Source: an uncultured Spirochaetota bacterium
GTDB taxonomy: Bacteria > Spirochaetota > UBA4802 > UBA5550
Reading direction: 5' to 3'
Assembly: GCA_963827275.1 (NCBI GenBank)
Contig: CAWHAA010000005.1
Location: 480,001-544,000 of the forward strand
DNA length: 64,000 bases
The notes under the pieces are model-generated. The model did not search any database. It was given only the letters and a program-made list of their open reading frames with translations, and was not told the origin of the DNA. The position numbers and the translations under genes are program-made. This document shows positions 571 to 46,092 of this stretch, one piece after another; the stretch's first letter is position 1, and every line of letters begins with the position of its first letter.

Positions 571-2988
571 TCATGAACCGGCCGCGCGCCCGATGACATT
601 CAGGGTGCCGCGGCGGCCGTCGATTTCCACGATATCGCCGTTCGAAAGGGCGCTCATTGCCCCCGGCACTCCCGTGATCATGGGCAGCCCGTATTCCCGG
701 GCCACGACAGCGCCATGCGAAAGCATGCACCCGGTCTCCGTCACGAGGCCCCCCGCGATGCTGTAATAGGGGGTCCACCCGATATCGGTGAAGGAGGCGA
801 CCATGATTTCCCCGCTCCGCAGGGACTCCGCGTCATTCACGCTGAATACCAGGCGGACGGCGCCGCGCACGATCCCGGCGCTCACGGGCATGCCCTGCAT
901 GACCGTGCCGCTCCGGCCGGATGCGGACATGTCGAGGGGCACGGCAGCGCCGCGAAAGACATCGGGGTAGCGCCGGCACATCTGCTCGGGAAGCAGCCGC
1001 CGCCGCTTCGCGGCCTTCCGCACCAGGGACGGATTCCCGGTCCGCACAACATCGCCAAGCTCGCTGCGCGTAAAAAAGAAAATGAGGTCCCCGTCGGGGA
1101 TGACGCCCCGCTCGGCCAGGAGCGCGGCGAGCCTCCGGTAGGCGTGCTTGAACCTGCCCTGGATTTTTATTACCAGGGACTTGCAATGCTCGCGGCCGAA
1201 CACGCCGCTGCGGGCCTGCCTCACGGCCCAGCGGAACGCGCGGCCCGACAGGACCGGGTTGTCCGCGGGCAGAGTGACGGCCGCCGCCGCTTCCCTCTCC
1301 CGTCCGGCCGCGCCGCCTGCGGCCATGCGCTGGAGCATGACAACCAGTTGGGAAGGGTCCTCTCCCCAATCCTTTTCCCTGAGCTCCGCCTCGCGGATGC
1401 AGCGGTGGCCATGGCGCGCAAGGAGCGCCCGGAAGGCGACGCCATGCGTCCCGCTTGCCGCGCCGGCCAGCCACCGGGCCGCCGCGTCCGGGTCCATGGC
1501 CGCGAATGCATCGCGGACGGCGGCGTCGCACGCCATGCCGGCGGCGATCTCCTCCAGGGACCGCACCACGGCGGCGCTCTCGATCCCCTCGATAGCGCTG
1601 AGGAGGGAGGTCAGCGCGCCGTCAAGCTCCTCCGCCGGCACGCCCCCCTTCCGAAGGATCTCCTGCACGATCCCGTTCATGACCCCCGAATGGATGCTTA
1701 CGCAGAGATGCCGGGCGTAGGCCCGGTTCAGGACGGTGATGCGGCGCTCAATGGCTTCGTAGAGACGCAGCGGGTCGCTCTCCGACAGATCGATCGCGAA
1801 GGCCGCGGCCGTTTTCTCCAGGCGGCGGAGTGACACTCCCTTCTGCATCACATACCAGGCCATGCGGAAGCTGTTTACGAGCCGCACCGCGAAGGGGGCC
1901 GGGCCGCCCGCCGGGCCCTCGTCGAGGGCATGGCCGAGAAGGTTCTGCTCGTAGCTCTTCCGCGTCGTGCCCAGGACGCGGTCCGCCATGAGCAGCATCA
2001 GGTCCAGGTTGAAGAAGAGGTGCCCGCCGAACGAGACAACGAACCGCTCGTCCCGGTTCGCGCGCGTAAGGGCGCCGGCGGTGCGGTAAAAATAGCGCAC
2101 GCAGAAATCGATGGCATCGCCGAACACGTTCATGGTAAGGGGCGTGACCGCCCCGGGCATCATCTCGCCGATGTTGGCGCGCGTGAAGAACTGGCCGTCC
2201 CGCGCCGGGTAGTCAAACTCGTCCGCGCCGGGGCCCTCGAGGGTCGTAATCGGCCGCGCCTGGAGCCAGTAGAGGCTTCCCGAATCGTCCACGGCCCATT
2301 CAAGGTCCAGGTGCCGCTTCATCTGTTCCGCGGCGATGCGGGACTGGCGCGCCAGCTCCCGCGCGAGATCAGCGCCGATCAGGGGGCCGCCCGGGGCCGG
2401 CTCCTCACTGACGGTCCTGCCGCCGCCGTCGACGCGATAGCGGCTGGCAAGCCGTTCGCCGCTCACCAGGGATTCGCCGAGCCCGTGGACCGCTTCGATG
2501 AGCGCGCACTCCGTGTCTCCCGTAACCGGATCGGCCGTAAAAATGACGCCGGCATAGCGCGGAGCGACCATGCGCTGGACCACCACTGCCATGGGCGCGG
2601 CGGCTCCTTCCGTCATCGTGCCGCGGTACGCGGCGACGCGGTCCGACCCGGCGGACATGGCGCATGACCTGACCGCGTCCCTGAGGCCGGTCAGTGAATC
2701 GATATTGAGGTGCGTGGCGAACTGCCCCGCGAAGGAGGCCCCTTCCCCGTCCTCGTCGCAAGCGGATGACCGCACCGCCCACGGACCGGGGCCGATAAGC
2801 CCGGGCACCGCGGCGACCGCCTCCTCCGTTACGCGGGCCGGGTCACGTATCACCAGGGCCGGGGGAACATTAAGCCCTGCGCTCATCAACGCCCGGAGAC
2901 CCGCTGCCTTGCCGCCGCCTTCACCTTCAGCAAGATCGCAGAGCCGCACCAGGGCCGGCGCGCCCTCTATTTTTTCAATGAAGGTCAT
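571..2988 (-). CDS. PEP-synthase-like phosphotransferase (PPDK_N ATP-grasp + central domain + C-terminal swivel His domain; rifampin phosphotransferase/PigC architecture)
   Basis: Motifs GGKAAGL, AVRSSACDEDG..SFAGQF, AVVVQRMV, DLEWA..LQARPIT, NIGEMMPG, and C-terminal TDIGWTP...LSHGAVVAREYGLP. Start placed at ATG 2988 (MTFIEK), overlapping the upstream gene's stop. Confidence 0.88.
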   Translation of the reverse strand: MTFIEKIEGAPALVRLCDLAEGEGGGKAAGLRALMSAGLNVPPALVIRDPARVTEEAVAAVPGLIGPGPWAVRSSACDEDGEGASFAGQFATHLNIDSLTGLRDAVRSCAMSAGSDRVAAYRGTMTEGAAAPMAVVVQRMVAPRYAGVIFTADPVTGDTECALIEAVHGLGESLVSGERLASRYRVDGGGRTVSEEPAPGGPLIGADLARELARQSRIAAEQMKRHLDLEWAVDDSGSLYWLQARPITTLEGPGADEFDYPARDGQFFTRANIGEMMPGAVTPLTMNVFGDAIDFCVRYFYRTAGALTRANRDERFVVSFGGHLFFNLDLMLLMADRVLGTTRKSYEQNLLGHALDEGPAGGPAPFAVRLVNSFRMAWYVMQKGVSLRRLEKTAAAFAIDLSESDPLRLYEAIERRITVLNRAYARHLCVSIHSGVMNGIVQEILRKGGVPAEELDGALTSLLSAIEGIESAAVVRSLEEIAAGMACDAAVRDAFAAMDPDAAARWLAGAASGTHGVAFRALLARHGHRCIREAELREKDWGEDPSQLVVMLQRMAAGGAAGREREAAAAVTLPADNPVLSGRAFRWAVRQARSGVFGREHCKSLVIKIQGRFKHAYRRLAALLAERGVIPDGDLIFFFTRSELGDVVRTGNPSLVRKAAKRRRLLPEQMCRRYPDVFRGAAVPLDMSASGRSGTVMQGMPVSAGIVRGAVRLVFSVNDAESLRSGEIMVASFTDIGWTPYYSIAGGLVTETGCMLSHGAVVAREYGLPMITGVPGAMSALSNGDIVEIDGRRGTLNVIGRAAGS

Positions 2989-3997
2989 AATCGAAGCGGC
3001 GCACGTTGTAGCCGAATTCGCAGATGCCCCTGCCGGGGACGCCGTCCAGGGTAAAGGCGGATACCCATTCGCAGACGCGGTACACGTCATCCATGAGCCA
3101 TCTGAATTCCGGCCCCCTGACGCATGATGCCGTAAGCCGCCGCCCGTCGGCCAGGTCCAGGTTGAAACGGAACGAAGCAGGCGGTCCTTCGCCGGGGGCA
3201 ATCCCGGCGAAGGGCGTGGACTCGGCAACGGGCGTGTAGCGGCCGTCCTTAGCGTAAAAACCCGCCTTTATCCTGATAAACGGATATTCGGGCAGGCTCA
3301 GGTTCACGAAGGAGCCGTCGTCGAGGCAGAGGCAGAGCCAGACGTGACGGTCCAGGGCGTCCCAGGAGCGGGGCCCGAAGGAATGGTCGCGAATATACTT
3401 CATGGCGAGCGCGCGCGTTTCCCCGTCGACGGACAGCGAGCCGGTGAGGTCGCCGCCCTGCTCGTAGTGGTGCTGGTGCATGCCGCGCAGCGTAAGAAAA
3501 AATTCCTTCGACCATCTCTCCGCCGCCATGGCGCGCGCCATCGGCGCGGGGCCCATGTCGTTGGTAAAGTGGAAAATCGGGAATGCGGAGGTGAGCCCGG
3601 CATTGAACCTGACCCTTGCCGGCCGCCCCTTCTCATCCATCATCGTGCCCGCAAAGGAAAGCTCGAATTTTTTTTCCGGCTCGCGGCAGATTATTGTAAG
3701 CGGGCTGCCCTCGAAACCCGTGATCGATTGCTGCAGCACTTCGGGAACGGAGAGGCGTCCGCGCCCCGGGAGGCTCAGGGAGAACCAGAGCTCGAACGCG
3801 CCCGTGCCGCGGCCCGCCAGCCGCAGGATAACGGCGGTGCCGTCCGGCGCATGGCCCGTGAAATAGTAGCTGTTGTTGTATTCCGGCACCGACCGGTCAA
3901 CAGACAGGTCCCGTTCCGCCGCGGCGGCATCAAAATCAGAGCCGCGAATGCTCCGCCCGACCATGGCTTTCGCCAGGCAGTATTTAATGGGATTCAC
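2975..3997 (-). CDS. Hypothetical beta-rich protein (AttH/tocopherol-cyclase/lipocalin-like fold suspected)
   Basis: 340-aa ORF with a GTG start and AGGAGG upstream. Motifs NSYYF, HYEQ, RDHSFGPRSW and G.CEF are typical of double beta-barrel AttH-like families (recognised from memory). Confidence 0.65.
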   Translation of the reverse strand: MNPIKYCLAKAMVGRSIRGSDFDAAAAERDLSVDRSVPEYNNSYYFTGHAPDGTAVILRLAGRGTGAFELWFSLSLPGRGRLSVPEVLQQSITGFEGSPLTIICREPEKKFELSFAGTMMDEKGRPARVRFNAGLTSAFPIFHFTNDMGPAPMARAMAAERWSKEFFLTLRGMHQHHYEQGGDLTGSLSVDGETRALAMKYIRDHSFGPRSWDALDRHVWLCLCLDDGSFVNLSLPEYPFIRIKAGFYAKDGRYTPVAESTPFAGIAPGEGPPASFRFNLDLADGRRLTASCVRGPEFRWLMDDVYRVCEWVSAFTLDGVPGRGICEFGYNVRRFDYDLH

Positions 3998-4232
3998 GAG
4001 AGGTAAACCTCCTATTTCAGCTCGAGGAGAGACAGGGCCCCCCTCTGACGCGGCCTGATGGGCGCGAAGCCCACTCTTATATATTTCAGGAGCGCGTCTT
4101 GTACGGTAATGGGGTAGTATATTGCAGAATCCGCTCGTCCTGTAAAGAAGAATTTTAAGAACGGGAAAACCGGCGCGGTTGTCTCAACAATGACGGCGCT
4201 TAAAACTCGTCCCCGGCCGCATCCTTATTCCG

Positions 4233-5531
4233 CTACTTTATTTTTTTCACCAGCACTTTATCGATCCTGTTGCCATCCATATCGACAACCTCGAAAGAAT
4301 GGCCCCCGTGCCTGAGCGTTTCACCCGTCTTCGGGATCCGACCGGCATGTTCCATGATAAATCCGGCGAGGGTATTATACGCGCCGTCCCCGGAAATATC
4401 CAGATTGAAATGCTCCATGAAATCATCCACCGATATCATCCCGTCGACAAGAAAGCTCCCGTCCCTGCGCCGCGTGATTTTCCGGCTCTCTTCCTCAGGC
4501 ACTTCCGGCACATCACCCACAATTTCCTCGATGACGTCATGCAAAGTAACGATGCCGGTCACTCCCCCGTACTCGTCGATGGCGAAGGCGATATGGGATT
4601 TGTTCGCCTTGAACAGCTCCAGCAGCTTGAGGGGGCTGATGCTCTCGGGCGCATACATCGGCTTTTCAATATGCCGCGCAAGCGACCTGTATTCGCCCCG
4701 GACGATCTTTCTTAAAACGTCCCGTGTCTTGATCACGCCGATGACATGGTCCAGCCCGTTTCTGCACACGGGCAGGTACGGATAATCCCCGAACTCGATT
4801 ATCCTTTCCCTGATTTTCTTCGCGGCTTCCGTTATCTCGATGTATTTAATGTCCGGCCTCGGTGTCATGATGGAGGCGATCCTGTTCCCATGAAGATCGA
4901 ACACTCCTTCGACCATCTCGGCCTGCTGCTTTTTGATCAGGCCGAACGCCTCCCCCTCCTTGATGAGCACCTTGATCTCCTCCTCCGTGACAGGAGGCTC
5001 CTCCTTGTGAACGCTTTTTGACCCAAGGAGATTCATGATAACATTGGTAATGACGGTAAACAGACGGACCAGCGGCATCAATATGATGGACACCATTTTC
5101 ATGGGGTACACGACAATAGACGCTATACGCTCGGGCCTGCCCAGGGCAATGCGCTTGGGGATGAGCTCGCCAAGGAGTATTGTGATGAACGTTATCGAAA
5201 CAACCAGTATCGCGGTACTGAGGAAATCGCCGTACCGGGCAATCGCCGGCACCGTCACAAAATACGCCCGGAGGCTCTCCGCGATTGTCTCCTCGCCATA
5301 CGCCCCGGCGAGGATGCCGATAAGGGTTATCCCGATCTGGATCGTTGACAGAAAAGAGGTGGGCGATTCCACCAGCGCCAGCACCGCGCGGTAGGATGCG
5401 CGCCCCTCATCAGCCTTGGCTTTCAGACGCAGCTTCCGTGACGAAACCACCGCCATTTCCGACATTGAGAACAACCCGTTCAGGAGCACCATGGAAAAAA
5501 TCACCAGTATAGCAAACAGTTCATTTGACAT
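4233..5531 (-). CDS. Hemolysin/CNNM-family protein (DUF21 + CBS pair + CorC_HlyC), Mg/Co transport related
   Basis: LNGLFSMSEMAVVSSR, FLSTIQIGITL, GELIPKRIAL, IMTPR, DEYGGVTGIVTLHDVIEEIVGD, TLAGFIM. Confidence 0.95.
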   Translation of the reverse strand: MSNELFAILVIFSMVLLNGLFSMSEMAVVSSRKLRLKAKADEGRASYRAVLALVESPTSFLSTIQIGITLIGILAGAYGEETIAESLRAYFVTVPAIARYGDFLSTAILVVSITFITILLGELIPKRIALGRPERIASIVVYPMKMVSIILMPLVRLFTVITNVIMNLLGSKSVHKEEPPVTEEEIKVLIKEGEAFGLIKKQQAEMVEGVFDLHGNRIASIMTPRPDIKYIEITEAAKKIRERIIEFGDYPYLPVCRNGLDHVIGVIKTRDVLRKIVRGEYRSLARHIEKPMYAPESISPLKLLELFKANKSHIAFAIDEYGGVTGIVTLHDVIEEIVGDVPEVPEEESRKITRRRDGSFLVDGMISVDDFMEHFNLDISGDGAYNTLAGFIMEHAGRIPKTGETLRHGGHSFEVVDMDGNRIDKVLVKKIK

Positions 5532-5784
5532 AACCGTACACCCCTGTCCTCTCTTACAGAATCCATAGTCAAATCATGCGGATTATCTTCATTAATTATA
5601 ATGTATCGTAAAGAATAAAATCAACCGGAAAAACATCAGGGCAGGAAATATAGGGGCATCAGGATACAATTTCTTAAAATAAAATAATCACCATGGCCGG
5701 CGGGGCGTTCGTCATGGCGTTGTCTCCGACATCATATACGCTGACCGGGGTGTGTACTGTTCTCATGCGCGCCGCGGTGCAGCA

Positions 5785-6684
5785 TCACCGTGACCTGAAC
5801 AACCCGTTCTTCATGACCTCCTGTCCGGCGCTGTTAAAAACGGCAAAGGGCTGCTCACCCGGGGCTGAAGGCGCATAGCCGACGAGTGTCAGCGACTGCC
5901 CGGGAAGGACGAACCCCGAAAACCGGCCCCTGACAGACTTCAGCCGGGAGAGGTCGTCCGCCAGTTGCCGCCGGGTCAGCGACGAGCAGCACATGGCCAT
6001 GAAGCATACCCCGTGGAGGATCGTGCGCGGAAGGCCGGACATCCTCGCCAGCACGTGGCTTGTATGGATAAAATTATTATCCCCCGAGACCGCGGCATAG
6101 GCGAGCTGTTGTCCCTCCCAGGTGCTGATTTCGGCGCGGAAACTCTCCCCCCTTGCCGGCCGCGTGCCGGCCGCGCGCTTCTCACGGACCGGCCTCGTTC
6201 CGCCGCCCCTGACCAGGAACCCCATCAGGGCCTCCACGGCGAGGGCGTCCCCGATAAAACCCTGCGCGCTGACGGTCATCATCTCACCGGCGGGAGTGTC
6301 ATGGATGTCTTTGACAAAGACCCTTCCCCGGACGCGGTCGCCGATACGCACCGGGACATGCCAGGCCACCTCCTGTTCGCCATGCACCATCTTCAGGAGA
6401 TTCAGCCCCAGGTCCCTGTGGGTGAGAACGCGTATCAGCTGATCATGGACCAGGCCCGAGAGGAAAAAAGGAGGAACGATCGCCCGCTCCTTTGCGTATT
6501 CGGGATTGGTGTCGCCGGTGGCCCGCGCATACGACAGCACCCTGTCGCGCTCCACCGTGACCTCGCACTCATCGATGGCGTAGCCGATCATCTCCCGGTT
6601 CAACGCCCGTGAATTGATGTTCCTCATGAGGGCAGTGAAAAGCCCCATGGTCCCGGGTCTGCCCGCCTGTTTTGTTCTGTTCAT
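5785..6684 (-). CDS. Double hot-dog MaoC-family (R)-enoyl-CoA hydratase/dehydratase
   Basis: YARATGDTNP, MVHGEQ, and YAAVSGDNNFIH...ILHG (D-4x-H hydratase motif). Start chosen at ATG 6684 after GAGG. Confidence 0.88.
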   Translation of the reverse strand: MNRTKQAGRPGTMGLFTALMRNINSRALNREMIGYAIDECEVTVERDRVLSYARATGDTNPEYAKERAIVPPFFLSGLVHDQLIRVLTHRDLGLNLLKMVHGEQEVAWHVPVRIGDRVRGRVFVKDIHDTPAGEMMTVSAQGFIGDALAVEALMGFLVRGGGTRPVREKRAAGTRPARGESFRAEISTWEGQQLAYAAVSGDNNFIHTSHVLARMSGLPRTILHGVCFMAMCCSSLTRRQLADDLSRLKSVRGRFSGFVLPGQSLTLVGYAPSAPGEQPFAVFNSAGQEVMKNGLFRSR

Positions 6685-6792
6685 AACGTCCTCGCCATTA
6701 CGGGAATGGCCGCGCCGAAGCAGGATTATCCCGTATTTCTGTCTGCTGTTATAAATGAAAGTACACCACACGGCGGGGATTAATCTTCCTCT

Positions 6793-8110: not shown

Positions 8111-8160
8111 CCCTCCCGCCAGGGGCGCCGGTGAATTTTAATACCAGGGGGCATATCACC

Positions 8161-9750
8161 ATGAAAAAAATCGGGATGACGGCGACTGCGCAACAAAAAA
8201 CAGCGGCCGGCCCCATACCGGGACATACCCTGCTGCTGGCGCTGCTGTTGTGCGCCTGCCTCTCCGGCTGCGGCAGCTGCAAGAAGGGAAGCAGCGGCAT
8301 TGACAACATCGTCTGGTTCCCTTTCGAGCACCGCCTGGCGCAGGACTCCCCCTGGCCGATGTTTCAGCATGACGCTTCGCACACCGGCCGCTCGCCCCGC
8401 AGCGGCCCCGACAGCGTATCTTCCATAGAAGAAATCGACCTGTGCTGCTTCGGCTTTTTCGGGTCGCCGGTGGTAGACGCTGATTCAAATGTCTATATCG
8501 GATCGATCCGCTCCGCAGAATTTGAACTCACTGCGAACACCTGGCCGATCCCGTGGCAGGCGCCTCCGGCATATTCCATGCGATCGGCCCCGCCGGCACG
8601 CCGCTGGCCGGCTTTCCCTTCGATTCCGGGCGCGGGAGCGTGCTGGCGACTGCGATCGAGTGCGCGCCCCTTCTGCTCGATGACGGCAGCATCCTGTTCG
8701 GGAAGGACGACGGGTACATGTACCGCCTCGGGCCCGGCGGCGCGCCGGTATGGGAAGCCGCGTCGGATGACCCGTTCAACCCGCTCAGCCCCACCGACGA
8801 CAACGAGCAGATGATCCCGTCGCCGCTCCTGGGCCCCGGCAACACGGTATTCTTCCTCAGCCACTTTGCCGACGTGTACGGGCCCGGGCCTGTAGAAGAC
8901 GTAGTCGCCACGCATGCCCCTCGATCGATTACTTTAAAATCACCGCGACCCCCTGGTATTCCAAGCTTTACGCCCTCGATGTCGCAAGCGGCGGGCGCCG
9001 GTGGGTCTTTGACCCGGAGGCGGAGGGCTACGATCCCATGGTGGGATGGGGATCGCCCGCGCTGGGTGCAGACGGCTCCTGCATCATCGGGCTCATGCGT
9101 ACCACCCTGGTGGCGATGGACCACTACGTGCCGACCACGGGCCGGGTGTTGGCCATAGGCCCTGACGGGAGGCCCAGGTGGGTCTTCCCTTCGGGAGAGG
9201 ATCTGGATTATTCAATCTGGGCTTCCCCGGTCATCGCCCCTTCCGGCGACATCTATATCGGGGCAAGCGACTATCTCTATAATGGAAGCGCATGCCTCTA
9301 CTCGCTCACCGCCGAAGGCGTGGAGCGCTGGCATTATGATTTTCCCGCGGATGAAAACACGATCGCGGCCACTCCCGCGCTCCGCTCGGACGGGAGCATC
9401 ATCGTCGCCACGCAAAGGCGCAATACGACAGATCCGGTCGAACGCTACGGCGCGGTCTATGCCCTTGACGACCAGGGCGCCCTCCTGTGGCGCTACCCGG
9501 CGGCAGGGACGGTCCCGGCCGGCTTCTATTCCTCGCCGCTGGTCGATGCTTCCGACCGCGTGTATATCGCAAACGAGCCGTTCCCCTGGGTGTCGGGCAC
9601 GGGCCTTCTCCTGTGCCTGGACAGCACGGGCGATCTCCTGTTCGAGCGAGAGCGCTGGGCGACTATGTGCACGGCAGCCTGGCGCTCGGTCCTGACGGGG
9701 CGCTCTACGTTCCCCTGCGCAGCCCGTCCCGTCTTCTTATAATCAGGTGA
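8161..9750 (+). pseudogene. PQQ-like beta-propeller lipoprotein (BamB-like repeats) interrupted by three -1 frameshifts
   Basis: Lipobox LSGC, WPMFQHDASHTGRSP and repeated SP-x-x-x-x-dG-x-I-Y/W blades continue across frames 1->3->2->1. Breaks are at about 8526-8565, 8890-8925 and 9640-9660. The joined product is about 530 aa. Confidence 0.75.
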
Positions 9751-9878: not shown

Positions 9879-9985
9879 TTGACAAAAAACCCGGCGAAAC
9901 TATCATTTTATTATAGTGATTAAACATACATATCTTTTCATACTTAATTTAATTCTTAATTAATGTAATTAAGAAAACTATCATT
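9879..9985 (+). promoter_or_regulatory. Promoter and palindromic operator candidate of the steroid-like operon
   Basis: TTGACA 9879-9884, 16-bp spacer, TATCAT 9901-9906. Perfect inverted repeat TTCTTAATTA-atg-TAATTAAGAA at 9953-9975. Confidence 0.6.
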
Positions 9986-9999
9986 AAAGAGTCATTCCA

Positions 10000-11043
10000 A
10001 TGGCAAAAACTAAACCTGCGTTTGGTCCCGCATGCCTTGTTACGGGCGGATCGGGATTTCTTGGCCGCGCCCTCACAAAAGCCCTGCTCGAACGGGGCTG
10101 TACCGTGCATTCCTTCGACATACGGCCCGGCACGGACCATCACCCCCGCGTCAACTATTTTACCGGGGACATCAGGGACTACGGCGCGGTCCGCGCCGCG
10201 ACCGAGGGGTGCGCCACGGTCTTCCACTGCGCCGCCGTGATGAACTTTCTCGGCATCTGCCGTCCGTCGGTGCGCCGCGAGGTGTACGGCATCAACGTCG
10301 CCGGCACGGAAAACGTCATCAGGGCCTGCCGGAAAGCCGGCGTGAAAGCGCTGGTCTACACGAGCTCGCATTGCGTCTGCTTCGATACGAGGCCGGTCAT
10401 CGCCGGCGACGAGTCGAAGCCCTACGCGAGGCGCTATCTCGACCTGTACGGGGAGACGAAGAGCGCCGCGGAGAAGCTCGTCCTTGCCGCGGACGATGAG
10501 GGCGGGCTGCGGACCGCATCGCTGCGCCCCGGCGGCCTGTGGGGCTCTTCCGACGACTGCTACATGTTCGCCAAGTTCATACAGCAGCTGGTGAATGGAA
10601 AGCTCGTTGCCACCATCGGCTCCGCCGACGCCGTCATCGACAACACCCATGTCGACAACCTCGTCCAGGCCGAGGTCCTCGCCGCCGAGGCCCTGGTGAA
10701 AAAACCGGGGGTCGCCGGCGGACAGGCCTATTTCATCGTCGATGACGAGCCGATGAACCTGATGCAATGGTTCCGGCCCCTCATCGAGGGACTCGGCTAC
10801 CGGTTCCCGAAGCGCTCCATTCCGGCCCTGCCGATGTACGCCCTCGGGTTTCTTTCGGAATGCCTGCATTTCATCGGCGGCCCCCGTCCCTTCATTACGC
10901 GGCTCGAGGTGCACAACCTCACCGCGAAATTCACCTTCCGGCAGGACAAGGCGCGCCGCGATCTCGGTTTCAAGCCGATCATCGGCTGTGAGAAAGGGAT
11001 GAAGGAATGCATCGAGTTTTATAAAAAGTATATTACCAATTAA
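10000..11043 (+). CDS. 3beta-hydroxysteroid dehydrogenase/Delta5-Delta4 isomerase family (extended SDR, Rv1106c/AcmA-like)
   Basis: LVTGGSGFLG, VFHCAA, INVAGTENV, VYTSS, DLYGETKSAAEKLVL (YxxxK), RPGGLWG, DNTHVDNL, GQAYFIVDDEPMN and KARRDLGFKP closely follow the sequence I recall for the M. tuberculosis cholesterol 3beta-HSD. Confidence 0.85.
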   Translation: MAKTKPAFGPACLVTGGSGFLGRALTKALLERGCTVHSFDIRPGTDHHPRVNYFTGDIRDYGAVRAATEGCATVFHCAAVMNFLGICRPSVRREVYGINVAGTENVIRACRKAGVKALVYTSSHCVCFDTRPVIAGDESKPYARRYLDLYGETKSAAEKLVLAADDEGGLRTASLRPGGLWGSSDDCYMFAKFIQQLVNGKLVATIGSADAVIDNTHVDNLVQAEVLAAEALVKKPGVAGGQAYFIVDDEPMNLMQWFRPLIEGLGYRFPKRSIPALPMYALGFLSECLHFIGGPRPFITRLEVHNLTAKFTFRQDKARRDLGFKPIIGCEKGMKECIEFYKKYITN

Positions 11044-11150
11044 GAAAAGACCGGGGATGAACGTCCGCTCGTATTGGAATCAGCTGGCCCGATGATCAGA
11101 GGGCCTGACGGCGCGGCACAACGGCCGCACAGGAAGAGGAGCAAGCCATC

Positions 11151-12851
11151 GTGAACGTAAAACAACCAGGCAGCACCAACCAGCAGTGGGACGAGGAATT
11201 TGACGTGGTCGTGGCGGGGTTCGGCGGCGCCGGTGCCTGCGCCGCCATTGAGGCGGCCGACCGGGGGGCGCGGGTCCTCGCTATTGACCGCTTCGCGGGC
11301 GGGGGCGCCACGAAAATGAGCGGCGGGGTGATATACTCCGGCGGGGGAACGAGGCACCAGAAGGCGGCGGGCTTCCGCGACACCCCGGAAAAGATGTACC
11401 GCTACATGATGCGGGAAATGGCGAGCAATCCCGCCTCCTCCCGTGTCGATGATATCGACCCCGCGGCCGTCAGGACCTTCTGCGAGAGGAGCGCCGAAAA
11501 CATCGACTGGCTCGAACGGCTGGGCCTGGTGATCCCCGAGACCTATTTCCCCGGCAAGACCAACCAGCCGCCGGGCGGCTTCGGCCTTTATTTTTCAGGA
11601 AACGAAAAACAGTATTCAGATAAACATTCCCACATCCCGCGGGGCCACGTCCCCATGGGGAAGGGCATGTCGGGCGGCTTTCTGTATTCGACCCTGCACA
11701 GGGCGGCGCTCGACCGCGGCGTGACCGTGCGCACCCGGTGGCGCTGCGAAAAGCTCGTGACAGACGGCAGCGGCGCGGTGACCGGCATCGAGGCCCTGGC
11801 ATTGAGCCAGTCGGCATTCGCCGGGGCGCTGCACGGGCTCCTGTACAATCTCGGCTTCATCAGCGGCGCCGCCCGGAAGCTCCTGGGCCTCGTGGAAAAG
11901 AGGTTCGGCACAACGGTCCGCATACGGGCCCGGGGGGGCGTGGTAATCGCCGCCGGCGGGTTCGTATATAACAGGCGGAAATTCAGGGAATACGCCCCCG
12001 CCTACGGCGGGTGCCTCCCCCTCGGCACCGCGGGCGACGACGGCAGCGGCATGGAGCTCGGCCTGGGCGCCGGCGGGGTGCTGAGCTCCGTCGACGTGTG
12101 CGCCGCCTCGCGCTTCATCTATCCCCCGGTCGCCTTTGTCTCAGGGCTGCTCGCGAACATTGAAGGGAGGCGCTTCTGCGACGAAAGCCTCTACGGCGCG
12201 AGCATAAGCCGCGCGGTAACGCAGCAGCCGGGGCGCCGCGCGTACCTCGTCATCGATTCATCGGTCCACCGGGACGGCGCGTCGCAGACAAGCAGGGAAG
12301 AACGGCTCGGCACCTCCATAAAAAGCATCCTCATGGGCGAGATGAACCATATCATATACCGCAAGCTCACCACCTTCGTGAACCTCCACCTGAACCGCAA
12401 AAAATCACGGACGATTGCCGGCCTCGCACAAAAATGCGGGATCCCCCCGGAAGCGCTGGTGCGTACCGTTGAATCGTACAACGCGCAGTGCGCCGCGGGA
12501 GCGGACCGGGCGTTCGGGAAGGCGCCCGGCCTTCTCCGCACCATCGGGACGCCCCCCTATTACGCCATAGACTGCGGGATCGAAACGCTGATGTTTCCCA
12601 GCCCCTGCCTCACCATGGGCGGCCTGAAGGTGAAGGGACTCACCTCGCAGGCGGTCAGGGCCGACGGCTCGGTCATCCCCGGGTTGTACGCGGCAGGACG
12701 GAGCGCCGCCGGCATCTGTTCCCGCTCCTACGTGAGCGGGTTTTCCCTTGCGGACTGCGTTTTTTCCGGCAGAAACGCCGGGGCCCATGCCGCGGCGCAG
12801 GCGCGCAAAAAGGCCGCTGCGCCGGGCCGGAAAAAAAAGAGGCCCTCATGA
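11151..12851 (+). CDS. FAD-binding 3-ketosteroid dehydrogenase family protein, most like 3-oxo-5alpha-steroid Delta4-dehydrogenase (TesI/Kst4D type)
   Basis: WDEEFDVVVAGFGGAGACAAIEA, DRFAGGGATKMSGGVIYSGGGT.HQ..AG..DTPEKMY.Y, GLYFSGNE, GRRFCDESLYGA, CLTMGGLKV, GLYAAGRSAAGICSRSYVSG.SLADCVFSGR.AG. Confidence 0.75.
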   Translation: MNVKQPGSTNQQWDEEFDVVVAGFGGAGACAAIEAADRGARVLAIDRFAGGGATKMSGGVIYSGGGTRHQKAAGFRDTPEKMYRYMMREMASNPASSRVDDIDPAAVRTFCERSAENIDWLERLGLVIPETYFPGKTNQPPGGFGLYFSGNEKQYSDKHSHIPRGHVPMGKGMSGGFLYSTLHRAALDRGVTVRTRWRCEKLVTDGSGAVTGIEALALSQSAFAGALHGLLYNLGFISGAARKLLGLVEKRFGTTVRIRARGGVVIAAGGFVYNRRKFREYAPAYGGCLPLGTAGDDGSGMELGLGAGGVLSSVDVCAASRFIYPPVAFVSGLLANIEGRRFCDESLYGASISRAVTQQPGRRAYLVIDSSVHRDGASQTSREERLGTSIKSILMGEMNHIIYRKLTTFVNLHLNRKKSRTIAGLAQKCGIPPEALVRTVESYNAQCAAGADRAFGKAPGLLRTIGTPPYYAIDCGIETLMFPSPCLTMGGLKVKGLTSQAVRADGSVIPGLYAAGRSAAGICSRSYVSGFSLADCVFSGRNAGAHAAAQARKKAAAPGRKKKRPS

Positions 12852-13684
12852 AACTGCAGGGAAAAGTCGTACTGGTCACCGGCGCCTCGACCGGCATCGG
12901 CAGGGCGGCCGCTCTGGAATTCGGCAGGGAGGGCGCCCGCGTCGCGATAGCGGCCCGGCGCAAGGAGCTCCTCGACGGGCTCGCATCGTCAATGGACGGC
13001 GCCCTTGTCCTGAAAACGGACCTCGCGGATGAACGCCAGGCCCGCGCCATGGTGGATGCAACCGTGCGGCATTTCGGCAGGATCGACATACTGGTGAACA
13101 ACGCCGCGACGAGCATCGTAGAAAGCTCGGACCGCGTCACGAGAGAGGACCTCGCCCGCGCTTTCACGGTAAACCTCCTCGGCCCCGTCACCGCCTGCCA
13201 GCAGGCCTATACCTACATGAGGAAACAGGGAAGCGGCCACATCATCAATATCGGCACCCCCGGATTCATGATCGGCGTTCCCTTTTACGCGCCCTATGTA
13301 TGCTCCAAGGCGGCGTTCTCGGCCTGGACGAGGACCATCCAGGGGGAATGGGCCGACGCGGGAATCGTCGTGAGCGAATATTTCCCCGGCTATACGGAGA
13401 CCGGGGCCGTGGCCGAGTCCGCGCGCGGCCCCGTACCCATGGACCTCGTCATGAACCGGGGCAAAGGCTTTCTCGCGCGGTACTTCTCGGGCGCGCGGAA
13501 CGGCGCGGACATAGCCAGGGACCTTGTGGCCCTGGCGAAGCGGCCCCGGCCGCTCATGTTCTCGACCTTCATGGAGCGCATCGCCGCCTTCGTGGCCAAC
13601 GTGCCCGCCGTCAGGCTGCCGGTAACGAGGCGCATGGCCGCGACGGCCAGGAAGAAACTCGCTGAAGGGGATAGCCATGTGTGA
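12848..13684 (+). CDS. Classical SDR oxidoreductase
   Basis: TGASTGIG, ILVNNA and YVCSK (YxxxK). ATGA overlap with the upstream stop. Confidence 0.92.
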   Translation: MKLQGKVVLVTGASTGIGRAAALEFGREGARVAIAARRKELLDGLASSMDGALVLKTDLADERQARAMVDATVRHFGRIDILVNNAATSIVESSDRVTREDLARAFTVNLLGPVTACQQAYTYMRKQGSGHIINIGTPGFMIGVPFYAPYVCSKAAFSAWTRTIQGEWADAGIVVSEYFPGYTETGAVAESARGPVPMDLVMNRGKGFLARYFSGARNGADIARDLVALAKRPRPLMFSTFMERIAAFVANVPAVRLPVTRRMAATARKKLAEGDSHV

Positions 13685-14546
13685 CCTCTGCATGAAACAC
13701 GGGGCCGGCGGCAAGTGGTACCTGAACGCCGAGCACTATTCCAATGAGATCGTGGAGAAGTACAACCTGCGGGACTTCCTCATGGAGCAGTACAAGAATT
13801 TCGAGCAGATATCAGTGCGCAAGATCCACGGCTTCAACGCGGTGGGGATGGGATACAAGCTGCGCATACCCCTGATCGGGCGGATCGTGAAACATACCGC
13901 GGAAAAGATGCTCCACAGCACCAACCCCCCGACGAACCCTTTCAAGGCGGAAGGGCATATCGGCCAGGTGATCCCGCTTGAGGACGCCATAGCGATCCTG
14001 GAAACCTGCGCCGCGGAGCCGATCATCGAAAAAAACTGCATGTGCCGCTACATGTCCCGCGGGGTCAAGGACGCCTGCTGCATCAATTTCGGCGTCATGT
14101 CCGAGATCGTCGACAAGCTGCCGCGCTTCATCCCGGAAAAGGACAGGTATTTCCTCACCCGGAAGCAGGCGGTCGAGCGCTTCCGCGAGCACAACAGGAA
14201 AGGCTACATCGGCACCATCTGGTTCGGGCCGTACCCTTACATCAACAACCTCTGCTCCTGCGCGAACCCGGAGTGCGCGGGCCTCAGGCCCCGGCTCGAT
14301 TACGGGATCAAGTCCATCTTCAAGGCGGAATACATCGTCCACCACCACGAAGAGGAGTGCGCCGGGTGCGGCGCCTGCGTCAGGTTCTGCCAGTTTGGCG
14401 CCATCGAGCTCGACGCCGTACGGAAAAAGATTACCATTAACATGGACAAGTGCTTCGGCTGCGGCCTCTGCAGGCATGCCTGCAAGCACGACGCCATACA
14501 CCTGGTGCCGCGCGACGAGGTCCCCGGGCATGAAAAGGACTACTAG
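13677..14546 (+). CDS. Cys-rich 4Fe-4S binding protein
   Basis: N-terminal MCDLCMKHG.G.KWY, CMCR, CCINFG, LCSC..PEC, and two C-terminal CxxCxxCxxxC ferredoxin motifs. Overlaps the SDR stop. Confidence 0.85.
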   Translation: MCDLCMKHGAGGKWYLNAEHYSNEIVEKYNLRDFLMEQYKNFEQISVRKIHGFNAVGMGYKLRIPLIGRIVKHTAEKMLHSTNPPTNPFKAEGHIGQVIPLEDAIAILETCAAEPIIEKNCMCRYMSRGVKDACCINFGVMSEIVDKLPRFIPEKDRYFLTRKQAVERFREHNRKGYIGTIWFGPYPYINNLCSCANPECAGLRPRLDYGIKSIFKAEYIVHHHEEECAGCGACVRFCQFGAIELDAVRKKITINMDKCFGCGLCRHACKHDAIHLVPRDEVPGHEKDY

Positions 14547-14561
14547 ATTACGCCCCCCGTC

Positions 14562-14585
14562 CCCTTCGACAGGCTCAGGGCACCG
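14562..14585. repeat. REP-like short palindromic element CCCTTCGACAGGCTCAGGGCACCG
   Basis: Matches the CCCTTCGACAGGCTCAGGG intergenic repeat type that I recall from many bacterial genomes. Single copy in this window. Confidence 0.55.
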
Positions 14586-14641
14586 CCCCGATGGGGGCAC
14601 GTATGAAAAAACGACAGGAAAGCAGCTGACAGGTGCGTGAC

Positions 14642-14914
14642 ATGAAGGAAACCATAAAGGGAAAGACGAAGATCACCATAGATTACAAAAAATGCGGCGA
14701 TGGCGTCGGCGTCGATCCCCGGGAATGCTGCGCCTGCCTGCGCCAATGCGAGCCCGCGGTCTTCCTGCTGCACCAGACCCTCGGCGCCGTCGAAGAAAAT
14801 CCCCATGACCCGAAGCGGTGGCGCGTCACCGCACTCTGGCTTGATCTCTGCACCCGCTGCATGAAATGCGTCGAAGGATGCCCCGCCGGGGCCGTTACGG
14901 TGACATGGCGTTGA
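14642..14914 (+). CDS. Small ferredoxin-like protein
   Basis: C..(insert)..CCACLRQCEP and CTRCMKCVEGCPAGA. Start is ATG 14642 or GTG 14633. Confidence 0.8.
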   Translation: MKETIKGKTKITIDYKKCGDGVGVDPRECCACLRQCEPAVFLLHQTLGAVEENPHDPKRWRVTALWLDLCTRCMKCVEGCPAGAVTVTWR

Positions 14915-16088: not shown

Positions 16089-16543
16089 GACGATATCCCT
16101 GCACCTGCCGCTTAGTCGCAAACGGTCACTATCATTATTATCTATAATAACAAATAAATCAATACCGCTCCATGGCGGACTATAAAAAAATCGCCGGGAC
16201 GGGCACCGGGGAAAGTATTTTTTCTGATATCAATTCTGTGCTTTTTTCTGCATCAAAAAAATACGCTCAATCATGAAAAATAATGACACAATGTCAGATT
16301 TGCATGAAGTACTGAATATGAAGATTACACATTCTATAAAATATCTTCTAAAACGCCCGGCATGTCTGTTCAAGGGCGGTGAAGGAACCGGGCCTGCCGC
16401 AAACGCCGGTCCGCACGGTCGTCAGGAAGGCACTCAACAGGTATGTCGAAAACGGGTTATATAAAAAGATAACGCGCTCTTATTTGAAACGCATGCGTCC
16501 CGTCTCGTCCGCATTACGGGACGCATACATCCCGCCATCGCAT

Positions 16544-44154: not shown

Positions 44155-46092
44155 TCATAGAGAGATGCCGGCAGCGTCGCCTTCATGGACCGCCTCAATG
44201 ACCCGCCGCGGCTTCACAACATCGCCCGCTTCCACAAGGGGGATCCCTTGCTCCCGCACCGCATCGACCAGCCCGCGTTCCGGCGCGGAGCCGAAGGCCT
44301 TGATGACGGTCGCAACCGGCTCGATGCGGACCCCGTTCCCCTCCTGCTCCGCCACGACCGCGTTTTTCTCTATCGCCGTGACCCTGCAGTTAAGCATCAG
44401 CGCGCCGCCGCCATCCCTCAGGCGCCGGTGGAGCCAGTAGCCGTGCGCCGGGAACTTGCTCACCGGCGGGAATTTCGCCATGTCAAGGAGCGAGACCGCG
44501 ATGCCGCGCGCCATGCAGTAATCCGCCGTTTCCATGCCCACGTAACCGGCGCCCAGTATCACCGCAGGGCCCGTGACGGGAACCGTACCCTCGAGCACAT
44601 CGCGCGCATCGACGACATTCGGGTTGCCGATGCCTTCTATCTGCGGCGCCGTCGGCGCCGCGCCGGCGGCCAGCACCACCACATCCGGCCTGTTATCCGC
44701 CAACATCTGCCCGGTGACCGCGGTGCCGGTCTGTATATGCACGCCCAGGCCTTTACACTGGCGCTCCGCCCATTCCACCCAGCGGTAAAATGCTTCTTTA
44801 TGCGGCGGCTTGCTCGCAGATACGAGCTGCCCGCCGAGGAGGGCACGCCGTTCAAAAAGCGTCACCCCGTGCCCGCGCTTCCCTGCCGCTATCGCCGCGG
44901 AGAGACCGGCGGGGCCTCCCCCGATGACCCACACCTTCTTCTTTGTAGCGGCTTGTCTGTATATATCCTCGTATTCTCGCCCGCACTCGGGATTTATCGA
45001 GCAGGTGGTCGCCTTGAATTCGAAGCTCAGGCGCTCGATGCAGCCCTGGTTGCACCCCATGCACCAGCGAATGTCGTCCCACCGCCCTTCCCGCGCCTTG
45101 ACAAGAAACTCGGGATCGGCAAGGAACTGGCGGCCCATGCTGACGAGGTCCGCGTCCCCACGCGCGATCGATTCGTCGGCCATGCGCGGATCGATGACCC
45201 TCCCCACGCCAATGACCGGGACCTTCACTGCCTGTTTTATCTCGCGCGCCCGGAACAGGTTGAACCCTTCGGGCGTGTCCGCCACGGGGATGGAGAGCAT
45301 GCCCGGCGTGGAGTAGACCCCCACGGACGCGTGCAGCGCGTCAGCACCCGCCTCGACCAGTCGCGGCGCGAGCCATTTTATAAACTCGAGTGCATAGCCC
45401 CCCTTGATGCATTCATCAGCCGACAGGCGGACAATGACCGGAAACCCCGGCCCGACTTTTTCCCTGACTGCCGTGAGGATTTCGATCAGAAAGCGCGCGC
45501 GATTTTCGTCTGTGCCGCCATATTCGTCCGTGCGCCTGTTGGAGAAAGGGGATAGAAACTGCGTTATCAGGTAGCCATGCGCCCCGTGCACTTCCACCGC
45601 GTCAAAGCCTGCCTGCCTGGCCCGGTATGCTCCCATGGCATAGGCGAGAACTATCTCCCTGATACGGTCCTTTGACATCGCCTCGGTGGGCTGGTTTAAT
45701 ATTACGCTCGGGAGGTCTGACGGCCCCTCCGGGCTCGCACCCGCAACTGCGGCAATGGTCTCGCGCCCCGCATGGTGAAGCTGAAGGGCGATCTTCGTCC
45801 CGTGCTCATGGACTGTTTCCGTGAGACGCGACAGGCCGGGGATGAATGTATCGTCCCACACGCCGATCTCCCTTCCAAACCCTCTGCCCCGCGGGTCGAT
45901 AGCGCACACCTCGGTGATAATGAGACCGACACCGCCACGCGCCCGCCGCTCGAGGTATGCAATAAGCCGGTCAGTGATGGAGCCATCTTTATTGCCGTAT
46001 GATGTAGCCATGGCAGGCATTACCACGCGGTTTTTTAGTTCCAGTTGGTTAATTTTTACTGGAGAAAAAAGGTGTGTAAGATTATTTTCCAT
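44155..46092 (-). CDS. Old-yellow-enzyme/Fe-S/FAD flavoenzyme (2,4-dienoyl-CoA reductase FadH / BaiCD-BaiH family)
   Basis: LKNRVVMPAM, QLHHAGR, GFDAVEVHGAHGYL..QFLSP..N.RTDEYGG, CMGCNQGC...C..NP, GGGPAG. Confidence 0.93.
   Translation of the reverse strand: MENNLTHLFSPVKINQLELKNRVVMPAMATSYGNKDGSITDRLIAYLERRARGGVGLIITEVCAIDPRGRGFGREIGVWDDTFIPGLSRLTETVHEHGTKIALQLHHAGRETIAAVAGASPEGPSDLPSVILNQPTEAMSKDRIREIVLAYAMGAYRARQAGFDAVEVHGAHGYLITQFLSPFSNRRTDEYGGTDENRARFLIEILTAVREKVGPGFPVIVRLSADECIKGGYALEFIKWLAPRLVEAGADALHASVGVYSTPGMLSIPVADTPEGFNLFRAREIKQAVKVPVIGVGRVIDPRMADESIARGDADLVSMGRQFLADPEFLVKAREGRWDDIRWCMGCNQGCIERLSFEFKATTCSINPECGREYEDIYRQAATKKKVWVIGGGPAGLSAAIAAGKRGHGVTLFERRALLGGQLVSASKPPHKEAFYRWVEWAERQCKGLGVHIQTGTAVTGQMLADNRPDVVVLAAGAAPTAPQIEGIGNPNVVDARDVLEGTVPVTGPAVILGAGYVGMETADYCMARGIAVSLLDMAKFPPVSKFPAHGYWLHRRLRDGGGALMLNCRVTAIEKNAVVAEQEGNGVRIEPVATVIKAFGSAPERGLVDAVREQGIPLVEAGDVVKPRRVIEAVHEGDAAGISL

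Follow-up and report, generated by a model that had tools for sequence, protein, structure and literature searches.

The question raised by this locus is whether five neighbouring genes of an uncultured spirochaete form a pathway that turns Delta5-sterols into 5alpha-stanols with the rings left intact. The 5alpha-stanol/Delta5-sterol ratio is in use as a redox tracer, and the conversion is ascribed to bacteria under anoxia in the accessible part of PMC6928973; our literature search, with thin coverage of subscription geochemistry journals, found no genes or organisms named for it, nor any paper on steroid metabolism in this lineage naming genes or organisms for stanol formation, and "spirochaet" occurs 0 times in a global steroid-catabolism survey (PMC5790920).

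The window analysed is a stretch of 64,000 nucleotides, in which five co-oriented reading frames occupy 10000..14914 of the + strand; the gene calls stand. In order, they encode a 3beta-HSD-family protein (HSD; 10000..11043, 347 aa; PF01073 3Beta_HSD, 7.5e-55), a flavoprotein (11151..12851, 566 aa from a GTG start; PF00890, 1.7e-40), an SDR (12848..13684, 278 aa; PF00106, 1.3e-45), and the Fe-S proteins FeS1 (13677..14546, 289 aa; Fer4) and FeS2 (14642..14914, 90 aa from ATG; Fer4). The listed start of the SDR frame, 12488, is too early and was replaced by 12848; for FeS2, the ATG at 14642 matches the starts of its relatives, and the GTG at 14633 would give 93 aa. Between flavoprotein and SDR there is an overlap of 4 nt, between SDR and FeS1 one of 8 nt; 107 nt separate the HSD from the flavoprotein, and 95 nt FeS1 from FeS2. 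The sequence-only reading had described co-oriented, partly overlapping genes and a spirochaete origin; the origin, too, is supported, relatives at 78-81% identity coming from records titled Spirochaetota/Spirochaetes (6/7) or Leptospirales (1/7).

Regarding its conservation, the block was followed across relatives and held up: among 18 fetched loci, 10 have the five genes in identical order at 76-95% identity, so the arrangement is more than chance, and 10 of the 17 relatives having the flavoprotein keep the block. Its carriers are uncultured spirochaetes of sediments and digesters. Across the comparison set of 61 related genomes, orthologues of the HSD and of the flavoprotein are found in the same 18, the two genes adjoining each other in 17/18 fetched loci and in 5/70 metagenome loci. 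Further downstream, a second extended-SDR gene has left a remnant of its 3' end at 16359..16469 (+ strand; 63-68% over 34-38 aa, 73-77% DNA identity to that gene); 5 of 10 relatives have this gene close to the block.

As for the first gene, the proposed 3beta-HSD-like family is confirmed by the Pfam match and by the motifs D40, T121-S122, Y150 and K154, of NAD type with a YxxxK site; among homologues, D40 and Y150 are each kept in 118/119 and K154 in 119/119. With its acidic residue after beta2 and YxxxK, the protein is, by these motifs, an NAD-type extended SDR of the 3beta-HSD family, and its predicted activity is that of a 3beta-ol dehydrogenase/Delta5-Delta4 isomerase. The best PDB match is human NSDHL (6JKG, 1e-42), and the JGI automatic name of many homologues, an annotation and not a test, is 3beta-hydroxy-Delta5-steroid dehydrogenase/isomerase. 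The best NCBIfam score was that of OleD, far under the cut-off (207 vs 580 bits); this identity was rejected, the protein being 36% identical to the genome's own OleD, which scores 458 bits and sits in an oleABCD cluster elsewhere (C8:448822-454506).

The flavoprotein passes the NCBIfam PRK07121.1-4 cut-off (560 vs 466), and its top PDB match is Kst4D (4AT0) by sequence (3.5e-68), by profile (6.7e-110) and by fold (TM 0.76/0.88, rmsd 3.3), the next folds reaching TM 0.47-0.61. Sequence, profile, fold and tree all set it nearer to 4AT0 than to either KstD or the fumarate/urocanate reductases. In the FastTree tree, it belongs to a 30-row set apart from 4 KstD-type rows (supports 98 and 100), and this set includes the probable Sp3KSD4DH1 orthologue from Sphingobium as well as a Cupriavidus gene that neighbours a KstD-like gene. 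In metagenomes, 15/70 loci of the family adjoin KstD, which again speaks for a steroid enzyme. Identification as KstD was rejected (PRK12844, 139 vs 789 bits; PRK07843, 103 vs 788 bits; a separate branch at 24-25% identity). Across 110 sequences, Y348 and Y527 never vary and at least 90% retain S529; the three align with a Tyr, Tyr and Ser of Kst4D that we take to be its catalytic Y319, Y466 and S468, and the first Tyr and the Ser are missing from all 4 KstD-type rows. Asn138 occupies the position of the Kst4D pocket tryptophan, presumably W136; Trp occurs there only in the short-form row, and the long-form rows vary (S, T, V, N and others), the probable Sp3KSD4DH1 orthologue among them. The sequence-only reading had called this protein a TesI-like FAD enzyme, and NCBIfam, the 4AT0 match and the residues bear this out, as does its grouping with Delta4(5alpha) steroid dehydrogenases. 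Of the conditions set out beforehand as refuting the proposal, the two put to the test, a flavoprotein grouping elsewhere and a block not conserved, thus both failed to come true. As judged from these comparisons, the flavoprotein is an FAD enzyme of the Kst4D/TesI Delta4(5alpha) type, in the long form of PRK07121, with a predicted 3-oxo-Delta4/3-oxo-5alpha steroid oxidoreductase activity; the JGI automatic name for homologues, again annotation and not a test, is 3-oxo-5alpha-steroid 4-dehydrogenase. Each of these two neighbouring enzymes, independently of the other, indicates the steroid A ring, and the substrate of the block is, with fair confidence, a steroid.

The third protein is a classical SDR with Y150/K154, and it is of NADP(H) type, having A35-A36-R37-R38 and no acidic residue. 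It is a clade-specific duplicate of C8:237613-238428, and 7/18 genomes keep the HSD and the flavoprotein without it. NCBIfam and PDB searches gave no steroid-specific family or structure match, and its earlier assignment as a 3-ketosteroid reductase was not upheld; it may be a 3-ketoreductase, to which the NADP-type motif is the one pointer. FeS1, rich in cysteine and with two 4Fe-4S motifs in its C-terminal part, belongs to an uncharacterised family of anaerobes and may serve as an electron carrier; FeS2 is small and ferredoxin-like, its 8 cysteines are invariant, and it is encoded after FeS1 in every intact locus seen.

Upstream of the block, a conserved promoter region (9879..9927, + strand) holds TTGACA (9879-9884), TATCAT after 16 nt (9901-9906) and the box GTGATTAAACAT (9916-9927); in aligned upstream regions, TTTGACAA is present in 11/11 and GTGATTAAACA in 9/11. 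The box has 5 exact copies in this genome vs 0.15 expected, is common to the block and to MMPL, LolA-like lipid-transport and lipoprotein genes, and is a putative operator. It is present also in G003 and G004, genomes without the HSD-flavoprotein pair, and no exact copy was found at the pair in G001, G009 and G016.

In SDRs, the motif that sets the cofactor type, NAD or NADP, also tells the usual direction of the reaction, and an NADP-type SDR would therefore favour net reduction, as would the failure to find any of the known ring-breaking genes looked for. The NAD-type HSD, secure as to family, would oxidise and isomerise a Delta5-sterol to the 4-en-3-one; the flavoprotein, for which family, fold and residues are in place, could then add hydrogen across C4-C5 to yield the flat 5alpha ketone, if it runs in this direction. 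The SDR might conceivably reduce the 3-ketone to the 5alpha-stanol, or else the HSD could do so by running backwards, and electrons might perhaps come from the FeS1-FeS2 pair. The hydrophobic substrate may be brought in by MMPL and LolA-like transport, tied to the block through the common promoter box, and the gain for the cell would be an electron sink or sterol detoxification. We tentatively prefer this sterol A-ring redox pathway, with net stenol-to-5alpha-stanol reduction and rings intact, at slightly less than an even chance. The assayed members Kst4D, TesI and Sp3KSD4DH1 are all described as dehydrogenases, which counts against reduction; a KstD has been run in reverse with reduced viologen, according to the accessible part of PMC9736390.

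Not all five genes need belong to such a pathway. An EthD-like gene, in this genome outside the window at C8:190820-191620, immediately follows the flavoprotein gene in 5 loci, lies no more than 0.9 kb from it in a sixth, and adjoins the HSD in 4/70 metagenome loci; fusions of its domain are found with HSD orthologues (5 proteins) and with a flavoprotein orthologue (1). By this distribution, the older and wider core is HSD, flavoprotein and EthD-like protein, the last likely a sixth component; the five genes are not the ancestral unit. Nor is the Fe-S pair a fixed part of it: the pair occurs without the flavoprotein in 3/61 genomes (G003, G022 and G032), whereas searches of G009 and G019, which both have the flavoprotein, did not find it. 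In 8 genomes it has other surroundings, and 3 of these lack the flavoprotein; in G001 and G016, the HSD-flavoprotein pair and the Fe-S genes flank leuS, at 7 kb from each other and on opposite strands. All this suits a working unit of HSD, flavoprotein and EthD-like protein, with the SDR copy and the Fe-S pair gathered under a lipid-responsive promoter by rearrangement, a reading that we place appreciably below an even chance; it is compatible with any substrate or direction, and its probability does not add to those of the others. Against it, 11 genomes of two genera keep all five genes in one order, with mostly tight junctions and one conserved promoter between varying flanks; FeS1 and the flavoprotein occur together in 16 of 21 genomes having either, kin that are not independent; and an extended-SDR gene again follows the Fe-S pair in G032 and G022.

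The enzymes could also run as an oxidative funnel from stenols, 5alpha-stanols or plant sapogenins to 4-en-3-ones, for detoxification or as a lead-in to side-chain beta-oxidation, with electrons leaving through the Fe-S pair to formate, hydrogen or trace oxygen. This is the direction in which Kst4D/TesI and, in the accessible part of PMC10653915, the Sphingobium 3beta-HSD and Delta4-dehydrogenase (on tomatidine) were assayed. An oxidative electron exit is possible because this genome has a heme-copper-oxidase-like subunit I gene, in view of which the earlier label "anaerobic" is not supported as it stood. A cluster at C8:459-484 kb includes thiolase-like pairs, three OB_ChsH2 domains, an SCP2 protein, a CoA ligase, a CoA transferase, three acyl-CoA dehydrogenases and a cholesterol-oxidase-like GMC protein, and in G012 orthologues of four of its genes lie ~3 kb from the block; however, its proteins score below steroid-linked NCBIfam cut-offs, and the CoA transferases match no steroid-specific model. 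Both known ring routes appear closed: KstD is absent from all 61 related genomes (0/61), the full-length PF00890 members of this genome (92% complete) being only NadB, GlpB and the block flavoprotein, and searches of the same genome found no Rieske gene, no MoCoBD_1/AtcA-type gene, no KshA or HsaC match and no triterpene cyclase. The aerobic 9,10-seco route (KstD, KshAB, HsaAC) and the denitrifier 2,3-seco route, which requires KstD/AcmB and the molybdenum hydratase AtcABC, were thus set aside, and no known ring-degradation route follows the block, as KstD, Rieske and AtcA-type genes were not found; the lack of ring-cleavage genes first remarked in the window extends to the genome and, for KstD, to the 61. 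For the steroid C25 dehydrogenase of the 2,3-seco route, a DMSO-reductase-family enzyme, the genome has 8 PF00384 matches as mere candidates, 4 with one in-frame TGA. Oxidation, moreover, needs no NADP-type SDR, and we regard the funnel as rather unlikely.

As for a substrate other than a sterol, the flavoprotein shares only 33-37% identity with its closest relatives whose function is known or probable, its wider superfamily takes in cyclohexanone and 4-oxocyclohexanecarboxylate dehydrogenases, some family members lie in contexts without annotated steroid genes, and 55/70 metagenome loci have no KstD in the available stretch, which is often short. We know of no EthD-like protein in steroid pathways; this constant partner, and a lineage without canonical steroid catabolism, would suit another cyclic lipid or a cyclohexanol/cyclohexenone (terpenoid, triterpenoid, humic fragment), with steroid labels transferred from distant homologues. 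This is improbable, for two unrelated, constantly paired families both lead to the steroid A ring, the flavoprotein matches cyclohexanone dehydrogenase much less well than 4AT0 (1.4e-6 vs 3.5e-68, TM 0.57 vs 0.76), and the JGI names of both homologue families are those of steroid enzymes.

In conclusion, the preferred reading is net stenol reduction; its fullest form, a fatty-acid-oxidising spirochaete with co-regulated MMPL/LolA-like sterol import, a TesI-type dehydrogenase driven backwards by its own Fe-S pair, the A ring as electron sink and the EthD-like protein as a steroid-handling component, which would be the first defined gene set for stenol-to-5alpha-stanol reduction in anoxic sediments and digesters, is unlikely as a whole. 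DNA words of the locus were found in bioreactor, sediment, freshwater, wastewater, manure and soil runs, with at least half of the words in 16 runs from 9 studies, and the block offers five candidate genes for cloning, with the EthD-like partner as the sixth, and a marker that can be set against stanol profiles. If the oxidative reading is true, there is steroid A-ring chemistry in a lineage for which no ring-degradation genes are known; with a substrate other than a sterol, this is an ordinary conserved oxidoreductase cluster.

Among known systems, Kst4D of Rhodococcus jostii RHA1 is the best sequence and fold match of the flavoprotein, with Tyr/Tyr/Ser aligned; the flavoprotein differs in being 33% identical, of long form with two insertions, and with Asn at the pocket Trp. 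TesI of Comamonas testosteroni is likened by description, the sequence comparison being with Kst4D. In contrast to both, this genome is without KstD, KshA and HsaC, and pairs the flavoprotein with a 3beta-HSD and, in one clade, also with an SDR and Fe-S proteins. The HSD shares PF01073, the NAD-type fold and YxxxK with human NSDHL and with the 3beta-hydroxysteroid dehydrogenases Rv1106c, AcmA and IsmA, the last three likened by name; IsmA leads to 5beta coprostanol, not 5alpha.

BaiP and BaiJ, which act with BaiA of gut Firmicutes, are anaerobic FAD 5alpha-reductases that turn 3-oxo-Delta4 bile acids into flat 5alpha steroids before a separate 3-ketoreduction, an analogy of function by description; in the accessible part of that report, they have bile-acid substrates, an extra FMN domain and a distribution confined to Firmicutes (PMC9645264). 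A BaiP/BaiJ type was rejected for the flavoprotein, in which Pfam found the FAD domain alone and no FMN domain, set against the BaiP make-up given there. Finally, the tomato-root Sphingobium system, as far as the accessible part of PMC10653915 describes it, belongs to an aerobe, was assayed oxidatively with DCPIP and lies inside full steroid catabolism; TomTYG72_32750, the probable Sp3KSD4DH1 orthologue as judged from neighbouring genes and not from a deposited sequence, is 37% identical to the flavoprotein and falls under the same NCBIfam model, and in Sp3betaHSD1/2 with Sp3KSD4DH1 the A ring is acted on by a 3beta-HSD and then by a Delta4(5alpha) flavoenzyme, as predicted here.

The block consists of five co-oriented genes that encode a 3β-HSD-family protein (HSD, 10000-11043), a Kst4D/TesI-type FAD enzyme (hereafter the flavoprotein, 11151-12851), an SDR (12848-13684) and two Fe-S proteins (FeS1, 13677-14546, and FeS2, 14642-14914); flavoprotein and SDR genes overlap by 4 nt, and SDR and FeS1 genes by 8 nt, so that the layout drawn by the sequence-only reading, five co-oriented ORFs with three of them overlapping, stands. 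The source genome, G000, in which the window is C5:480001-544000, measures 4.13 Mb, is 92% complete, and its closest titled relatives are Spirochaetota; as background only, syntrophic fatty-acid oxidation is described for the class UBA4802, to which G000 presumably belongs. At least half of the block's words occur in 16 sequencing runs from 9 studies (bioreactor, sediment, freshwater, wastewater, manure and soil metagenomes), with no RNA run among the listed holders.

Regarding its conservation, full-length orthologues of the flavoprotein (at least 53%) and of HSD (at least 50%) occur in the identical 18 of 61 genomes; this pair is found in 14 of the 16 same-genus relatives, and in the phylum sample the flavoprotein is present in 18 of 401. 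The two genes are adjacent in 17 of 18 fetched loci, the exception being a second flavoprotein copy in the relative G021 (L038:8726-10384; 44-47%), which no longer carries the Tyr, Tyr and Ser discussed below and is without an HSD neighbor. The same five genes, whose conservation had been left for checking, lie together in 10 of the 18 loci (9 of the same genus, 1 of another), counts that come from kin genomes and are not independent. In two relatives, G001 and G016, a distance of 7 kb that includes leuS separates the pair from the Fe-S genes, an arrangement suggesting that the block arose by joining pieces of the leuS region. Myxococcales-named homologues of HSD and of the flavoprotein come from contigs of matching length, which hints at an occurrence of the pair in other phyla. 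Outside the family, the phylum sample yielded a single flavoprotein orthologue (G112:C1:115194-116810), with one TGA within the match; none of the partner genes lies in the 20 kb retrieved for this locus.

As for the surroundings, two flanking AraC genes were rejected as parts of the block, with no match in 18 of 18 loci. Upstream, 571-6771 holds a PEP-utilizing/PPDK-like gene, a DUF7064 gene, a CNNM/CorC transporter and a double MaoC dehydratase, none of which recurs across the 18 related loci; at 8131-9742 (+), a β-propeller-like lipoprotein gene is broken across three reading frames by a frameshift or an assembly error, and its homologue is a single ORF of 531-568 aa near the block in three relatives (L024, L028, L030). 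Of 10 relatives, 5 have a second extended SDR close to the block, and a relic of it remains here at 16359-16469. Geranylgeranyl-reductase-like flavoproteins occur in several relatives (L032, L033, L034, L035, L050), near HSD-flavoprotein-EthD genes or directly before FeS1; no homologue was found in G000.

HSD is a PF01073 protein whose nearest PDB relative is NSDHL, and its homologues conserve Asp40 (118/119), Tyr150 (118/119) and Lys154 (119/119); by the usual SDR rules, the Asp40 pattern indicates NAD use. HSD is not the OleD of this genome, which sits in an oleABCD-like olefin biosynthesis cluster (C8:448822-454506) where OleB and OleC form a single fused protein (878 aa). HSD-flavoprotein fusions were set aside as direct support: only in the homologue P0062 does the HSD half have the window HSD as its closest relative (33%), those of P0095 and P0110 being extended SDRs that are only distantly related.

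The flavoprotein scores above the cut-off of the NCBIfam models PRK07121.1-4 and below those of the models for KstD, the Δ1-dehydrogenase, so its identification as KstD was rejected. Its closest solved relative is Kst4D of Rhodococcus jostii RHA1 (PDB 4AT0), both by single sequence (3.5e-68; runner-up 1.7e-36) and by profile search (6.7e-110; runner-up 1.9e-55). The predicted fold (mean pLDDT 92) matches 4AT0 with TM 0.76/0.88 and rmsd 3.3, against TM of at most 0.61 for the remaining listed folds, values that led us to reject a fumarate or urocanate reductase. Y348, Y527 and S529 align with residues that we take to be catalytic in Kst4D; among 110 sequences, neither tyrosine varies and at least 90% retain the serine. 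In a midpoint-rooted FastTree with local supports only, built on 35 rows after dropping 21 (4 long or wrong rows and 17 close relatives), the flavoprotein falls within a long-form set of 30 rows (support 98) and four KstD-type rows stand apart (support 100); its earlier placement with the Δ4(5α) type is thereby borne out. A short-form Tsukamurella gene, located between hsaA and kstD, branches between the two sets. The long-form set includes a Sphingobium gene (37% identity) whose neighbors match those described for Sp3KSD4DH1, an assayed Δ4-dehydrogenase (PMC10653915). Among 70 metagenome loci of the flavoprotein family, a KstD neighbor occurs in 15; in five of the 70 (L103, L115, L122, L123, L132), the gene after the TesI-type flavoprotein encodes a cholesterol-oxidase-like GMC protein, and two of these five also have a distant Rieske gene upstream.

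The pair has a further partner, an EthD-like protein of 242 aa with no Pfam match, EthD occurring in 10-28% of the members of look-alike clusters. Its gene is present in 18 of 18 pair genomes and in 2 others. Of the 7 pair loci devoid of the block, 6 have it after the flavoprotein gene, and it adjoins HSD in 4 of 70 metagenome loci, in which the HSD and flavoprotein genes point away from each other; it is also fused to HSD orthologues in five proteins and to a flavoprotein orthologue in one. In G000, it is found outside the window, at C8:190820-191620, still near leuS.

The SDR carries invariant Arg37-Arg38, and each of the 11 aligned sequences lacks an acidic residue at this place, an NADP-type pattern; neither a specific family match nor a specific PDB relative was found. 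Only the 11 block genomes have the block-type SDR (79-86%), and a paralogue (47-57%) is present in all 16 genus relatives, so that the SDR is a duplicate. FeS1 belongs to an uncharacterized family (67 representatives at E ≤1e-30), some members of which have an extra ferredoxin domain; look-alike clusters are mostly from Chloroflexota and Thermodesulfobacteriota, and the PDB search gave no specific relative. A 1024-aa FeS1 "fusion" (P0276) was uninformative, as it has a peptidase C25 region. FeS2 follows FeS1 in 10/10 block loci and in 7/7 intact loci elsewhere. Of the 61 genomes, 19 have FeS1; the flavoprotein is present in 16 of these and missing from 3, and two flavoprotein genomes lack FeS1. 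These distributions bear on whether the SDR and Fe-S genes are passengers, a possible reading that cuts across the others: the duplicate SDR and the FeS1 genomes devoid of flavoprotein are consistent with it, and the overlapping genes and the 16 shared genomes speak for a common function. A complex prediction for flavoprotein, FeS1 and FeS2 scored 0.00 (mark 0.32) and is no evidence either way.

Upstream of HSD, the element TTTGACAA is found in 11/11 block loci, and GTGATTAAACA in 9. The 12-mer box has 5 copies in G000 against 0.15 expected, and 14 of the 16 genus relatives carry 3-7 copies; the same 12-mer reversed, used as a control, does not occur in 35 of 37 genomes. Copies in G000 stand upstream of the block, of genes for an MMPL transporter and a LolA-like protein, and of an unannotated lipoprotein-like gene, and the box stands ahead of one of these four gene types in 15 of 30 loci examined (83 matches in total), from which we infer a link between the block and lipid transport. 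The box is not pathway-specific: two genomes devoid of the pair have it, and three non-block genomes do not carry it at their pair. Sites of a second class (L157, L158, L160, L164, L167; G000 C4:595666-595677) have AAGCTG before and ATTTTAGG after the box; no downstream gene matched within 1.5 kb, and these sites could represent a small gene or RNA.

As for the rest of the genome, the lack of ring-cleavage genes first seen in the window holds beyond it: KshA and HsaC references have no match in G000, those of HsaA and HsaD give generic matches only (21-26%), and the KstD family was found in 0 of 61 genomes. Rieske, MoCoBD_1 and squalene-hopene cyclase domains were not found in G000, the last result leading us to reject sterol or hopanoid biosynthesis, and NadB, GlpB and the block flavoprotein are its sole full-length members of PF00890. 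G000 has 20 acyl-CoA dehydrogenase and 22 crotonase matches, and four molybdopterin proteins with an in-frame TGA are probably selenocysteine formate dehydrogenases. At C6:74382-76601, a heme-copper oxidase subunit I-like gene (PF00115, 180 bits, under the NCBIfam cut-offs) has a small partner gene upstream; given this gene, a strictly anaerobic life is plausible at most. A BaiCD-like Fe-S flavoenzyme at 44158-46092 (-), 30 kb from the block (541 bits versus a cut-off of 825), adjoins acyl-CoA dehydrogenase, 3-hydroxyacyl-CoA dehydrogenase and hydrolase genes; it is possibly a 5β-type enone reductase, and such enzymes are common. The region C8:459075-484000 holds paired thiolase-like genes, three OB_ChsH2 domains, an SCP2 protein, a crotonase, a CoA ligase, a CoA transferase, three acyl-CoA dehydrogenases and a cholesterol-oxidase-like GMC protein; in the relative G012, four orthologues of these genes are ~3 kb from the block.

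Taken together, we tentatively favor net reduction of a stenol to a 5α-stanol, because the ring routes are closed and on account of the cofactor pattern and two precedents. HSD would carry out the NAD-linked oxidation and isomerization of the stenol, the flavoprotein a flavin-linked reduction at C4-C5, and the SDR an NADPH-linked 3-ketoreduction, with the Fe-S pair as putative electron carriers. Families, fold, key residues, gene order, promoter box and missing genes are observations; the substrate, the direction, and the parts played by the SDR and the Fe-S pair are predictions. An oxidative funnel, in which the same enzymes would turn stenols and 5α-stanols into 4-en-3-ones, is rather unlikely: G000 does have a thiolase/OB-fold/SCP2 cluster resembling side-chain machinery, but this cluster scores under steroid-linked cut-offs, and the closed ring routes weigh against the funnel. 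A non-sterol substrate is improbable given the Kst4D-like fold, even if the flavoprotein is only 33-37% identical to the steroid enzymes, has Asn at what we take to be the pocket Trp of Kst4D, and has family members in clusters devoid of annotated steroid genes.

The precedents for net reduction come from known systems: FAD-dependent 5α-reductases occur in gut anaerobes (PMC9645264), and the KstD reaction is reversible (PMC9736390). The literature covered, largely outside subscription journals, did not yield the combination in a KstD-less lineage, the EthD-like partner or the box shared with lipid transport. Each enzyme family of the block is itself already known, and with its predicted substrate and direction the block makes an old geochemical question directly testable.
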